NCBI RefSeq assembly: GCF_044324875.1
Contig: NZ_CP172185.1
Direction: 5' to 3' (one strand)
DNA from: Escherichia coli
GTDB lineage: Bacteria > Pseudomonadota > Gammaproteobacteria > Enterobacterales > Enterobacteriaceae
Length of the DNA stretch: 64,000 nt
Part shown: piece by piece, positions 4,055 to 27,074 of the stretch
Position numbering within the stretch: position 1 is the first letter of the stretch
Layout: the number at the start of each line of letters is the position of its first letter
Position numbers and translations under genes: made by a program
Notes under the pieces: generated by a model
What the model was told of the DNA's origin: nothing
What the model saw: the letters and a program-made list of their open reading frames with translations, nothing else
Database searches by the model: none

Positions 4055-4148
4055 TGCCTTCGCTCAGGGTGCCGGTCTGGCACCCTGACTTGCAACTCCC
4101 GCCGAAATCCTGCAAAGTCTGCCTGCAAGTCTGACAGGGCAACTATTT

Positions 4149-14177: not shown

Positions 14178-15696
14178 AGTGGTAGCCCATCAACTGAGCG
14201 CCGATCACCACGACGCTGGACATAATAAACAGCAGTCCAAGCAGTGTCGCGCCCACCTTCAGCCAGTTACGGAAGTCCACCCGGCAAACACCTAGCGTTG
14301 CCATTAACGAAGCTGAGGTCGGGTAAATGATGTGGCTGAAGCCATCACCAAACTGGAACGCCAGCACGGTAACCTGACGGTTAACACCGACCAGATCGCC
14401 AAGCGGTGCCAGTAACGGCATGGTTAACGCCGCCTGACCAGAACCGGACGTCACGAAGAAATTAAATACCGCCTGGAAGAGCAACATAAACCAGGCCGCG
14501 ACCGCATTGTCCAGACCGCTAATGGCATTGGCAATGCTGTTGAGGATGGTATTTAACACGCTGGCATCACCCGCTTCACCATTACCGACCAGCAGCAAAA
14601 TCCCTTTGGCGAAACCCACCAGCAGGGCAGGGGCGATCATCATTCGCGCCCCTTCGGTAAAGGATGAAGCCATGGTATTAACCGTCATGCCGTTAAGGCG
14701 GAAAACAACGCCGATGATGCCAATCACCAGACCCATGGTGAAGAACTGGCTGGCAATTTCTGGAATAAACCAGGCATTAACGATCACGCCCCAAATCACC
14801 CAGACCATTACGGCGGTCAGGACAATCAATACCAGCCAGTCACCAAAGGTAAACGGACGTTGTTCAACATCCGCCTGCTTTTCACGAAAGAAGCGGTCGG
14901 ACTCATGCACGCGTGACAGAAGAGGATTCTTTTTCACTCGTGAGGCGTACACCATGGTAAAGATCAGGCCAATCAGAGTGGCGATAACCCACACCACGAT
15001 GCGCAACCCGGAGCCAGAAAGCACCGGAACGCCGGCAATCCCCTGAGCAACAACCACACAAAACGGGTTCATCCACGAACTGGCAAAACCGATTTGCGTG
15101 GCGATATAGGTCACCAGGACGGTGGTAATACTGTCATAGCCCAGCCGGACCATTAGCGGTGCGATGATAATGGCAAAGGCGACGGCCTCTTCTCCCATAC
15201 CAAATACCGCGCCGCCAAGTGAAAACAGAATAAAGAGCGCAGGAATAAAGAGAATTTCATTTCCGCGGGTATGGCGAATAAGCGCCAGGATACCGTTATC
15301 AATGGTTCCTGTACGCATCACAATGCCAAACGCGCCGCCAATCACCAGCATAAACATGATGATGCCAACGGCTGTCCCGTATTTCGATCCTGAGGTTAAC
15401 CCTTCAAACGGGAAGTTCATCAGACCCGGGCGTTCATCGCCCGTCGTGAACAGCTGTACGCGGTGATACTCAGGTTCGCCTGCTTCGTTAGTCAGAATGC
15501 GAAAAGAGTGTGGATCTACGACTTTGCGAGTTTTTGTTTGACCATCAACCTGATACTGCACTTCCTGACTGTCAAACATGCCCACCGGAACTACCCAGGT
15601 GGCAAGGCTGGTTAAAATAGCAACAAAAAAGATAATCACCAACGTATCGGGCATTGCCCATCTTCTTGTTGGTTTAGATTCAGTGATTGCGGACAT
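14176..15696 (-). CDS. yfcC: inner-membrane transporter, YfcC/C4-dicarboxylate anaerobic carrier family
   Basis: Large polytopic membrane ORF; ATG at 15696 (MSAITESKPTRR...) preferred over the in-frame GTG at 15717 used in the track. Confidence 0.8.
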   Translation of the reverse strand: MSAITESKPTRRWAMPDTLVIIFFVAILTSLATWVVPVGMFDSQEVQYQVDGQTKTRKVVDPHSFRILTNEAGEPEYHRVQLFTTGDERPGLMNFPFEGLTSGSKYGTAVGIIMFMLVIGGAFGIVMRTGTIDNGILALIRHTRGNEILFIPALFILFSLGGAVFGMGEEAVAFAIIIAPLMVRLGYDSITTVLVTYIATQIGFASSWMNPFCVVVAQGIAGVPVLSGSGLRIVVWVIATLIGLIFTMVYASRVKKNPLLSRVHESDRFFREKQADVEQRPFTFGDWLVLIVLTAVMVWVIWGVIVNAWFIPEIASQFFTMGLVIGIIGVVFRLNGMTVNTMASSFTEGARMMIAPALLVGFAKGILLLVGNGEAGDASVLNTILNSIANAISGLDNAVAAWFMLLFQAVFNFFVTSGSGQAALTMPLLAPLGDLVGVNRQVTVLAFQFGDGFSHIIYPTSASLMATLGVCRVDFRNWLKVGATLLGLLFIMSSVVVIGAQLMGYH

Positions 15697-15811
15697 AGCG
15701 CAAATATTCCCTTGCACAAAACAAAGTGGTAAGTATGCAAAGTGAGATGGCGCAATTCATTGATGCAGCGCAGTTAAGCAAGATAATCAGAAAGGATTAA
15801 TGCAAATTAAG

Positions 15812-15876
15812 AGAATAAAAAACCGGAAATAGTCACTATTTCCGGTTCCGATATCCGCAGCGCAAAGCTGCGGATG
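15812..15876 (-). terminator. pta terminator region (two hairpins, one with T-tract)
   Basis: Minus-strand hairpins ccgcagc-tttgc-gctgcgg and aaccggaaatagtgactatttccggtt followed by tttttt, directly downstream of the pta stop. Confidence 0.7.
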
Positions 15877-15885
15877 ATGACGAGA

Positions 15886-18030
15886 TTACTGCTGCTGTGC
15901 AGACTGAATCGCAGTCAGCGCGATGGTGTAGACGATATCGTCAACCAGTGCGCCACGGGACAGGTCGTTAACCGGCTTGCGCATACCCTGCAGCATCGGC
16001 CCGATGGAGATCAGGTCGGCAGAACGCTGTACCGCTTTGTAGGTGGTGTTACCGGTGTTCAGATCCGGGAAGATGAACACGGTAGCGCGACCTGCAACCG
16101 GAGAGTTCGGCGCTTTGGATTTCGCAACGTCAGCCATTACCGCAGCGTCGTACTGCAGCGGACCGTCGATCATCAGGTCAGGACGTTTTTCCTGCGCCAG
16201 ACGAGTTGCTTCGCGAACTTTTTCTACGTCGCTACCAGCACCAGAAGTCCCGGTGGAGTAGGAGAGCATAGCAACGCGCGGTTCGATACCGAAGGCCGCA
16301 GCGGAATCAGCGGACTGAATCGCGATTTCTGCCAGCTGTTCTGCGGTCGGATCCGGGTTGATCGCACAGTCACCGTAAACGTAAACCTGTTCCGGCAGCA
16401 GCATGAAGAACACGGAAGATACCAGGGAGCTGCCCGGTGCAGTTTTGATCAGCTGCAGCGGCGGACGGATGGTGTTTGCGGTGGTGTGAACAGCACCGGA
16501 AACCAGACCATCAACTTCATCCTGTTCCAGCATCAGCGTACCGAGAACCACGTTGTCTTCCAGCTGTTCGCGGGCAACGGTTTCGGTCATGCCTTTGTTC
16601 TTACGCAGTTCGACCAGACGACCAACATAGCTTTCGCGAACCACTTCTGGATCAACGATTTCAATGCCTGCACCCAGTTCTACACCCTGAGACGCTGCAA
16701 CACGGTTGATCTCTGCCGGATTACCCAGCAGTACGCAAGTTGCGATACCACGTTCAGCACAGATAGCGGCTGCTTTAACGGTACGCGGTTCGTCACCTTC
16801 CGGCAGAACGATACGTTTGCCCGCTTTGCGCGCAAGTTCGGTCAGCTGATAACGGAACGCTGGCGGAGACAGACGACGGCTGCGCTCAGAAGTGGCAGTC
16901 AGAGAATCGATCCAGTCAGCGTTGATGTAGTTAGCAACGTATTCCTGAACTTTCTCGATACGCTCGTGATCGTCAACCGGAACTTCCAGGTTGAAGCTCT
17001 GCAGGCTCAGAGAAGTCTGCCAGGTGTTGGTGTTCACCATAAATACCGGCAGGCCGGTAGCGAAAGCACGTTCGCACAGTTTAGAAATGCGCGCGTCCAT
17101 TTCGTAGCCGCCAGTCAGCAGCAGGGCACCGATTTCTACGCCGTTCATGGCTGCCAGGCACGCGGCAACCAGCACGTCAGGGCGGTCTGCGGAAGTCACC
17201 AGCAGAGAACCGGCACGGAAGTGCTCCAGCATGTGCGGAATGCTGCGTGCGCAGAAAGTGACGGATTTAACGCGGCGAGTATTGATGTCGCCTTCGTTGA
17301 TGATGGTCGCATTCAGGTGGCGAGCCATATCGATCGCACGAGTCGCGATCAGGTCAAAGCTCCACGGCACAGCGCCGAGAACCGGCAGCGGGCTGGATTC
17401 TTGCAGCTTCGCCGGATCAACATTGTTTACTTTAGCTTTGGAAGAGTCGTCGAAAATCTCGGACAGATCCGGGCGAGTACGACCCTGTTCATCAACCGGT
17501 GCGTTCAGTTTGTTAACGATAACGCCGGTGATGTTGGTGTTTTTGGCACCGCCGAAGCTGTTGCGGGTCAGTTCGATACGCTCTTTCAGCTGTTCCGGGG
17601 TGTCAGTGCCCTGAGACATAACGAAGACGATTTCCGCATTCAGCGTTTTAGCGATTTCGTAGTTCAGAGACTGGGCAAACTGGTGCTTACGTGTCGGGAC
17701 CAGACCTTCAACCAGAACGACTTCAGCGTCTTTGGTGTTAGCGTGGTAGTTTGCGACGATCTCTTCCATCAGCACATCTTTCTGATTGCTGGAAAGCAGA
17801 CCTTCAACGTAGCTCATTTTCAGCGGTTCAGCGGCCGTCGTGGTGGAAGAGTTCGCACGCACGATAGTGGTAGTCTGATCGGGCGCATCGCCACCGGTAC
17901 GCGGCTGAGCGATAGGTTTGAAAACGCTCAGACGAACGCCTTTGCGTTCCATTGCACGGATCACGCCAAGGCTGACGCTGGTCAGACCGACGCTGGTTCC
18001 GGTAGGGATCAGCATAATAATACGGGACAC
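15886..18030 (-). CDS. pta: phosphate acetyltransferase
   Basis: 714 aa with N-terminal [28 protein letters not shown] and C-terminal PTA domain. Confidence 0.97.
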
Positions 18031-18104
18031 GGTTTATCCTCTTTCGTTACCGCCGATTTGGCGGGTTACAAAACAGCACCGCCAGCTTAGCTGGCGGTGT
18101 GAAA

Positions 18105-19307
18105 TCAGGCAGTCAGGCGGCTCGCGTCTTGCGCGATAACCAGTTCTTCGTTGGTTGGGATAACCACTGCAGGACGGGTACCTTCTTTGTTGATGAAACC
18201 AGATTTGCCGAAACGTGCAGCCAGGTTGCGTTCATGATCAACTTCAAAGCCCAGCACGCCCAGTTTGCCCAGAGACAGCTCACGAACCATCGCGGCATTT
18301 TCACCGATACCACCGGTGAATACAACAGCGTCCAGACGACCATCCATCAGCGCAGTGTAGGCACCGATGTATTTCGCCAGGCGGTGGCAGTAAACGTCCA
18401 TTGCGCGCTTCGCGTCTTCTTTCGTCGCGTAGTTGTCTTCAACATAGCGGCAGTCGCTGGTCACTTCGGTCAGACCCAGCAGGCCAGACTCTTTGGTCAG
18501 CAGTTTGTTGATTGCGTCAACGCTCATGCCCAGGGTGTCGTGCAGGTGGAAGATGATCGCCGGATCGATATCACCAGAACGGGTACCCATGACCAGACCT
18601 TCCAGCGGGGTCAGGCCCATAGAGGTGTCAACGCATTTACCGTTGCGGATAGCAGAAACGGAACCACCGTTGCCCAGGTGGCAGGTGATGATGTTCAGTT
18701 CTTCTACCGGTTTGTTCAGCATTTTTGCCGCTTCCTGGGTTACATAGAAGTGGCTGGTGCCGTGCGCGCCGTAACGACGGATGCCGTGCTCTTTGTACAG
18801 GTTGTACGGCAAGGCGTAGAGGTAAGACTCTTCCGGCATAGTCTGATGGAACGCGGTGTCAAATACAGCAACGTTTTTGTCTTTCAGCTGTGGGAAAGAT
18901 TTCAGAGCTTCTTCGATACCGATCAGGTGAGCCGGGTTGTGCAGCGGTGCAAAAGAAGCTGCATCTTTGATACCCTGAATAACAGACTCATCGATCACTA
19001 CGGAGCTGGTATACTTTTCGCCGCCGTGTACGATACGGTGACCGATAGCAGTCAGCTGCGCAGACAGTTCTGGTTTTTGTGCCAGAATAGTATTAACGAT
19101 AAAGTTGAGCGCTTCGCTGTGAGCGGCGCCTGCACCTAAAGCCGCTTCCTGTTTATTGCCGTCCATTTTCCATTTGATACGTGCTTCGGGCAGGTGGAAA
19201 CATTCGGCTAAACCAGAAAGGTACTCTTCACCATTTACTGCATCGATGATGGCAAATTTCAGTGAAGAACTACCGCAGTTCAGAACCAGTACTAACTTAC
19301 TCGACAT
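18105..19307 (-). CDS. ackA: acetate kinase
   Basis: 400 aa, N-terminal [20 protein letters not shown]; upstream of pta on the same strand. Confidence 0.97.
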
Positions 19308-19644
19308 GGAAGTACCTATAATTGATACGTGGCTAAAAAAACGTCAGGGAGCCATAGAGCGTAGCGCATGATGACACCGACATTTATGATTAACATCATG
19401 CACTGCAAATTTTTTTTGCATGATGGAAGAAATATCTTGAGTCTATGCCATTTTGCGTAATTTTCAGCCAATGGCATAATGTATATGAATTTGACGACTC
19501 AATGAATATGTACTACTTAGGCCTTCAGGCTGCTAAAGGATACCTGATAGTGGGTATGGAAGACAAAATGTTTTGAACGTTGTCCCGCTGAGTTGTGAAT
19601 TTGCACAAATTTTTGAATCTTTATATGTGAAGTTGAGGTGAAGC

Positions 19645-20100
19645 ATGTCAACGCCGGATAATCGTTCTGTTAATTTTTTTAGCTTGTTTCGCCGGGGACA
19701 GCATTACTCAAAGACGTGGCCGCTGGAAAAACGCCTTGCCCCGGTCTTTGTCGAAAATCGCGTTATCAAGATGACGCGTTATGCGATCCGTTTTATGCCG
19801 CCGATCGCCGTATTTACTCTCTGCTGGCAGATTGCCCTGGGCGGTCAGCTTGGGCCGGCAGTTGCCACTGCGCTGTTCGCTTTTAGTTTACCCATGCAGG
19901 GATTGTGGTGGCTGGGCAAACGTTCTGTAACGCCATTACCCCCTGCAATCCTTAACTGGTTTTATGAAGTTCGCGGTAAATTGCAGGAGTCTGGACAGGT
20001 GTTGGCACCCGTTGAAGGCAAGCCTGATTACCAGGCATTAGCTGACACGCTTAAGCGCGCCTTCAAACAACTGGATAAAACTTTCCTTGATGATTTGTAA
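19645..20100 (+). CDS. yfbV: UPF0208 family inner-membrane protein
   Basis: 151 aa with two predicted TM segments, divergent from ackA. Confidence 0.75.
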
Positions 20101-20104
20101 TTGA

Positions 20105-20677
<573 letters not shown>

Positions 20678-23915: not shown

Positions 23916-23998
23916 AGTGACCTTACGTATGATGACATCATCAGGTCATTGTGGCGGGATAACACTGCCGGATGCAATCTCCGGCAGTGAAATTAAGA

Positions 23999-26132: not shown

Positions 26133-27074
<942 letters not shown>

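Follow-up and report, generated by a model that had tools for sequence, protein, structure and literature searches.

The terminators between rplL and rpoB and between rpsU and dnaG are classical examples of Rho-independent terminators which are internal to an operon and allow substantial read-through. Other cases, such as prs-dauA and dapA-bamC, appear in the study of full-length primary transcripts of E. coli MG1655 by SMRT-Cappable-seq (Yan et al. 2018, PMC6131387), where sites with high read-through have less well-defined U tracts. Protective structures of the malE-malF type (Dar and Sorek 2018, PMC5927463) are another kind of stem-loop found between the genes of an operon. The distance from a terminator to the preceding gene has been studied with a tR2 reporter: the ribosome represses almost completely a terminator located a few nt past the stop codon, and full efficiency is only reached beyond about 27 nt (Li et al. 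2016, PMC4824070). The hairpin between ackA and pta which we describe here is an element of an ordinary, well-known kind, E. coli has many such terminators with read-through inside its operons.

The window, that is, the whole stretch of DNA that we have analyzed, contains 64,000 nt from E. coli. The hairpin region is located on its minus strand, between ackA and pta. An 801 nt stretch around this site is found, with 95–100% identity, in 5,425 of the 5,426 complete E. coli genomes, and the annotation corresponds to ackA and pta. The ackA coding region (acetate kinase, 18105–19307, minus strand) is a 400 amino acid open reading frame which matches the acetate/propionate kinase model of NCBIfam (TIGR00016) with 622 bits, it is called ackA in 5,425 E. 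coli genomes. Its TGA stop codon is found at 18105–18107 (minus strand). The pta coding region (phosphate acetyltransferase, 15886–18030, minus strand) has 714 amino acids, a match of 1105 bits to NF004167 and a GTG start codon at 18028–18030 (minus strand). A gap of 74 nt, 18031–18104, separates both genes, and RefSeq has no annotated feature in it, either in K-12 or in the other genomes compared. The operon ends with a terminator-like hairpin after pta (15819–15849, minus strand), a 14-pair stem leading into a U run (-17.3 kcal/mol, z = -4.9). Adams et al. 2021 list a Rho termination region just past this hairpin, at K-12 position 2416989. Two open reading frames on the plus strand, with 738 amino acids (15874–18090) and 73 amino acids (17918–18139), are antisense to pta and reach the hairpin region. 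A Pfam search with these two frames gave no match, they are most likely shadow open reading frames.

The mRNA (minus) strand of the gap, with its two hairpins in parentheses, reads UGA-UUUCA-(CACCGCCAGC-UAA-GCUGGCGGUG)-CUGUUUUGU-AA-C(CCGCC-AAAUC-GGCGG)-UAACGAAAGAGGAUAAACC-GUG, and the whole gap has a folding z = -5.1. Hairpin 1 (18077–18099, minus strand) consists of a 5' arm CACCGCCAGC (18090–18099), a UAA loop (18087–18089) and a 3' arm GCUGGCGGUG (18077–18086), it begins 5 nt past the ackA stop codon. On the plus strand, 18077–18099 is CACCGCCAGC-TTA-GCTGGCGGTG, a perfect 10 bp inverted repeat with 8 G-C pairs and a 3 nt loop. A preliminary description of this DNA, made from the sequence alone, had proposed a perfect 10 bp stem at this place, between the ackA stop and the pta start on the minus strand; both the stem and its location agree with what we find. 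The 4 nt loop, ttag, proposed in the same description has to be corrected to 3 nt (TTA): one g had been counted twice, which gives 24 letters for coordinates which cover 23.

The stability of hairpin 1 is far beyond what is expected by chance. The RNA fold on the mRNA strand has -18.9 kcal/mol (z = -5.6), and none of 200 shuffled sequences is equally stable. The window contains six perfect stems of at least 10 bp, when 0.43 are expected from shuffles. The hairpin 1 pattern appears once, with no occurrence expected, and still once when up to 3 mismatches are allowed. There is a single locus in each E. coli genome, the two places found by BLAST are due to the palindrome matching both strands. 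Hairpin 1 does not belong to the REP/BIME repeats: we have considered a REP-like repeat family and rejected it on account of the single copy per genome. An Rfam scan of 15500–20000 with E values up to 10 gave only sub-threshold chance matches. The best one over the gap is STnc490, with 21.2 bits for a threshold of 56 (E = 0.5), so the element does not correspond to a curated family. Four further perfect inverted repeats of at least 10 bp are found in the window, at 4064–4088, 20122–20148, 23963–23989 and 26386–26412. The one at 20122–20148 is followed by TTTTTCACC on the plus strand and is terminator-like.

Within E. coli the 74 nt gap is nearly fixed. The K-12 version, with a UCA loop, is found without changes in 5,141 of 5,423 genomes, and the version present in the window, with a UAA loop, is a minority allele (254 of 5,423). 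This loop position, 18088 in the window, is the only common polymorphism of the gap, and it does not affect the folding energy.

A U-rich tail, CUGUUUUGU (18068–18076, minus strand), is found directly 3' of hairpin 1, with 6 U in 9 nt; the hairpin on the minus strand is followed by CTGTTTTGT. A consensus scan in which a U-rich tail needs at least 5 T in 8 nt accepts CUGUUUUGU, and it gives a terminator-like call only on the minus strand: 10 pairs, 8 of them G-C, a loop of 3 and the tail CTGTTTTGTA. The tail on the opposite strand, TGAAATCAG, does not contain a T run. Hairpin 1 has the stem of a Rho-independent terminator, G-C-rich, within the usual 5 to 14 bp or so, and with a short loop. The orientation is also that of a terminator, on the ackA sense strand just past the TGA, with the U tail on the sense side only. 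The U tract 3' of the stem is present, although it is imperfect: CUGUUUUGU has a single U among its first 3 positions, which is atypical of an efficient terminator. When the tail is included in the fold, there is an equally stable alternative in which two extra pairs form around a bulged C and UUUUGU comes directly after the stem. No structure competing for the 5' arm of hairpin 1 appears in the minimum free energy or centroid folds of the region, and there is no mutually exclusive structure before the termination decision, as a regulated attenuator with a terminator/antiterminator switch would have. We have also considered an antiterminator in which GGCGG, from the 3' arm of hairpin 1, would pair with its only complement, CCGCC, the 5' arm of hairpin 2. 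It was rejected, the partner is transcribed after the decision point and it is not conserved where the sequence of hairpin 2 differs.

In order to follow this element in other species, we have used 80 ackA loci of Gammaproteobacteria, one genome per species, and have extracted the ackA-pta gap from 78 of them. These span Enterobacterales, Orbales, Pasteurellaceae, Vibrionaceae, Aeromonas and Shewanella. In 68 of the 78 loci the 90 nt after the ackA stop contain a hairpin of -10 kcal/mol or lower whose 9 nt tail has 4 T or more, compared with 12 of 1,560 dinucleotide shuffles (0.8%). The stem CACCGCCAGC is the form found in Enterobacteriaceae. Other lineages have other stems: CAACACCGTCAGC/GCTGACGGTGTTG in Pectobacterium, AAACCGCC in Gilliamella, AAGGCCGCC in Aeromonas, AAACTGCCGA in Pasteurellaceae, ACTGGCTAAC in Vibrio and AGCCTGC in Shewanella. 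Despite this turnover of the stem sequence among lineages, the position of the hairpin and the U tail are kept. The tail is directional: in 64 distinct hairpins, the 9 nt flanks have an average of 5.4 T after the stem and 2.7 A before it (Wilcoxon p = 4e-10, for sequences which are not phylogenetically independent). In 21 Enterobacteriaceae both the stem and the TGTTTT which follows it are invariant. Some species do not have the hairpin: in Yersinia thracica (locus L022, 2704–2745) and in two Rosenbergiella (loci L046 and L077, 2704–2744) it is missing from a gap of 41–42 nt, which indicates that the element is dispensable in some lineages. It is present in other Yersinia species.

An alignment of 42 Enterobacterales gives a more detailed picture of the stem. 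Practically all stem cells (98.8%) pair, and 7 of the 10 pairs have changed on both sides in a compensatory way. None of 500 shuffles reaches the observed values, and registers which are slid along the alignment are only 24–65% paired. Ten stem cells are U-G on the sense strand, they would be A-C mismatches on the antisense strand. The length of the loop varies from 3 to 6 nt. Taken together, the variable loop, the U-G pairs tolerated only on the sense strand and the compensatory changes point to an RNA structure of the sense strand, not to a DNA palindrome which binds a protein. Hairpin 1 is thus under selection as such a structure.

Between the U tract and the ribosome-binding site of pta there is a smaller hairpin 2, CCGCC-AAAUC-GGCGG (18050–18064, minus strand, -9.2 kcal/mol). 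In 21 Enterobacteriaceae, 4 of its 5 pairs are compensatory and 90.5% of the cells are paired, examples of the variants being CCGTC/GACGG, GCGCC/GGCGC and GCCAG/CTGGC. Cedecea has an unrelated, longer stem in the same position. Hairpin 2 could serve to protect a processed pta RNA at its 5' end. It is followed by the Shine-Dalgarno region of pta, AAGAGGA (18037–18043, minus strand), 6 nt upstream of the GTG; AAGAGG is invariant in the alignment. A different, conserved pta leader, TTGAC(T/C)AACGAGCAACCGTAAAGAGGTTT, is common to Yersinia, Brenneria, Photorhabdus, Pectobacterium and Acerihabitans (loci L019, L028, L029, L033, L036, L039 and L043). It is found in the gap after the terminator, in the place which corresponds to hairpin 2.

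The transcripts of this operon have already been catalogued as ackA-only, ackA-pta and pta-only units. Supplementary Data 4 of the SMRT-Cappable-seq study (Yan et al. 2018, PMC6131387) contains an ackA-only (b2296) unit which starts at 2413305 and matches a RegulonDB unit. In the same source there are also b2296-b2297 units from four starts upstream of ackA, and a pta-only (b2297) unit from a start at 2414486, inside ackA and 187 nt upstream of the gap. The last position corresponds approximately to 18291 in the window, where the start base is G (A in K-12). Promoter-like hexamers are found upstream of it, inside ackA on the minus strand (18297–18325): TTGTAT (18320–18325), a 17 nt spacer and GAAAAT (18297–18302), read by eye in both the window and K-12. 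Every pta-containing unit listed in that part of the source starts upstream of hairpin 1, and neither a scan nor inspection by eye detected any promoter-like site in the 46 nt from hairpin 1 to the pta start. The element must therefore be leaky in E. coli. Since there is no room for a pta promoter between the hairpin and the start codon, all expression of pta relies on read-through.

These units show what a partial terminator should give, terminated and read-through RNAs with a downstream gene which needs read-through, in so far as the end of the ackA-only unit is not simply that of the longest read. In fact, Yan et al. 2018 (PMC6131387) take the longest read as the limit of any unit for which no end is defined, so the ackA-only unit need not end at hairpin 1. 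No coordinate beginning with 24147 appears in the parts of the Yan et al. tables and of the TERMITe supplements that were covered, and a search for a 3' end mapped at the U tract gave none. Neither ackA nor pta has an end in the curated Term-seq lists of Adams et al. 2021. Since the terminator of pta itself is also absent from them, their silence on ackA is uninformative. The Term-seq supplements for V. cholerae have no ackA entry, and a full-text search of the literature gave no specific description of a terminator between ackA and pta. Two observations on expression are also relevant. Antisense silencing of the ackA mRNA decreases AckA by 78% and Pta by 48% (PMC1635301), which indicates partial co-transcription. 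The small RNA SdhX represses AckA and leaves Pta unchanged.

Our preferred reading is that ackA probably ends in a weak Rho-independent terminator, formed by hairpin 1 and its U-rich tail, which is leaky. In the same reading, hairpin 1 would also protect the 3' end of the ackA mRNA from exonucleases. Polymerase coming from the ackA promoters, or from the start inside ackA, would transcribe hairpin 1, and part of the complexes would be released at the U tract, giving an ackA-only mRNA whose 3' end would be capped by a very stable stem, resistant to exonucleases. The remaining polymerases would go on to pta, which starts 46 nt further on. A ribosome at the ackA stop codon would sit over the 5' arm of hairpin 1 and would lower termination. 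Our data and the published units establish the structure, its selection as sense-strand RNA, the directional U tail and the existence of ackA-only, ackA-pta and pta-only units; we infer, in this reading, that the 3' ends are formed at the U tract by termination, and also its efficiency and the effect of the ribosome. Low termination is expected because the U tract is interrupted (CUGUUUUGU), and because hairpin 1 begins 5 nt past the stop codon, within ribosome cover. On the other hand, the fact that SdhX leaves Pta unchanged argues against a strong dependence of read-through, or of pta output, on the translation of ackA. The preliminary description had suggested partial termination or processing of the transcript at this hairpin. 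The anatomy of the element, its compensatory conservation, the recurrence of hairpin and U tail, and the ackA-only and ackA-pta units speak for this suggestion; against it, no 3' end mapped at the U tract was found in the available parts of the published tables. The same description proposed that the hairpin could set the ratio of ackA to pta expression, a ratio to which the pta-only start inside ackA also contributes.

A processing or stability element would explain many of the same observations. RNase E would cut the full ackA-pta RNA in the U-rich stretch between the two hairpins, hairpin 1 would block 3' exonucleases and stabilize the ackA half, and hairpin 2, near the new 5' end, would protect the pta half. 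The very stable hairpin 1, a single-stranded G-U-UUU stretch and the covarying hairpin 2 are found in this order, and the stretch, G-U/UUU, fits the consensus motif of RNase E. The effect of SdhX, which lowers AckA and not Pta, is easier to understand if both halves have separate fates, and a hairpin which blocks exonucleases after cleavage would yield the same RNA species as a terminator. The layout of hairpin, cleavage and hairpin also matches the differential-decay layouts of Dar and Sorek 2018 (PMC5927463). Nevertheless, an exonuclease block does not need a U tract, yet a directional U-rich tail is found in nearly all lineages, even with unrelated stems, and TGTTTT is invariant in the 21 Enterobacteriaceae. 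The Salmonella tables of RNase E cleavage have no ackA or pta entry, a weak argument because genes may appear in them under locus tags. What speaks most for termination over pure processing is the conserved, directional U tail. We consider processing by itself rather unlikely, but the two do not exclude each other. It is much harder to suppose that the terminator is efficient, with a monocistronic ackA and a separate promoter for pta past the hairpin. Such a situation would be easier in Vibrio, Photobacterium, Erwinia, Budvicia, Hafnia and Rahnella, where strong U tracts and gaps of 100–200 nt leave room for a promoter. For E. coli we regard it as very improbable: the 46 nt between hairpin and pta contain no promoter-like site, the published pta units in the part of the source available begin before the hairpin, from four starts in front of ackA and from the one inside it (2414486), and silencing of the ackA mRNA cuts Pta by 48%.

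Two other proposals concern the DNA itself and the translation of pta. A perfect palindrome of 23 bp, invariant in 21 genera, might be the site of a dimeric protein, a cruciform or a recombination signal, and it contains GCTGGCGG, which differs in one base from the Chi octamer, GCTGGTGG. The spacing between the arms varies from 3 to 6 nt, however, the asymmetric U-G states are tolerated only on the sense strand, in distant lineages the sequence has changed while pairing and U tail persist, and the resemblance to Chi is lost in the variants GCTGACGG, ACTGGCGG and GCCTGCGG. We have rejected both the DNA palindrome or protein site and the Chi-like octamer on these grounds, variable arm spacing, sense-only U-G pairs and sequence turnover, a function at the DNA level has hardly any probability left. 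The proposal about translation deserves a little more credit, although it is still improbable. In the read-through RNA the U tract would pair with ACGAAAGAG, which takes in the 5' half of the pta Shine-Dalgarno, and the extended stem, capped by hairpin 2, would damp the translation of pta. The predicted fold of 18031–18076 has -15.7 kcal/mol (z = -3.6), and RNAalifold gives the same pairs across 21 species. However, the paired columns are all invariant, so there is no covariation to assess; U-rich and A/G-rich stretches pair trivially, each of them being conserved for its own reason. The helix is weak, rich in A-U and G-U pairs, and length variants on its 3' side in several genera would shift the register.

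A more ambitious version of the leaky terminator would make the 74 nt gap a controller with two parts. Hairpin 1 would terminate mainly those polymerases which are not closely followed by a ribosome, tying the transcription of pta to the translation of ackA, and the U tract would pair with the pta Shine-Dalgarno around hairpin 2, tuning the translation of pta. Both parts would jointly set the balance between AckA and Pta, and with it acetyl-phosphate. This is a speculative scheme, to which we give little credit.

AckA and Pta jointly set the level of acetyl-phosphate, a metabolite involved in signalling and in the acetylation of proteins, so whatever uncouples their expression matters for the physiology of the cell. 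If there is a leaky terminator between both genes, it would help to explain the ackA-only transcript, and also how SdhX can lower AckA but not Pta. The value of our analysis is to show that hairpin 1 is real, conserved and ordinary.

When the locus is compared with the systems described at the beginning, the tR2 reporter (Li et al. 2016, PMC4824070) shares its geometry: a hairpin a few nt past the stop codon, where the terminating ribosome represses folding and favors read-through. The tR2 system is an engineered reporter, however, and at ackA-pta the data on SdhX do not show the coupling which tR2 would predict. Protective structures of the malE-malF type (Dar and Sorek 2018, PMC5927463) are also found in polycistronic RNAs, where the upstream cistron ends at its 3' side in a stable stem-loop, followed by a single-stranded stretch which could be cleaved. 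The malE-malF element is a REP repeat, whereas the ackA-pta hairpin is present in a single copy per genome and has a conserved U tail, superfluous for a pure exonuclease block. The operon-internal terminators with read-through, such as prs-dauA and dapA-bamC (Yan et al. 2018, PMC6131387), differ from ackA-pta in two respects: at ackA-pta the hairpin is unusually near the stop codon (5 nt), and upstream of it we detect no antiterminator or attenuator structure which would compete with it. They resemble it in having a G-C-rich hairpin and a U tract between co-transcribed genes, in giving both terminated and read-through RNAs, with a downstream gene which needs the read-through, and would share with it the relation by which a poorer U tract goes with higher read-through.
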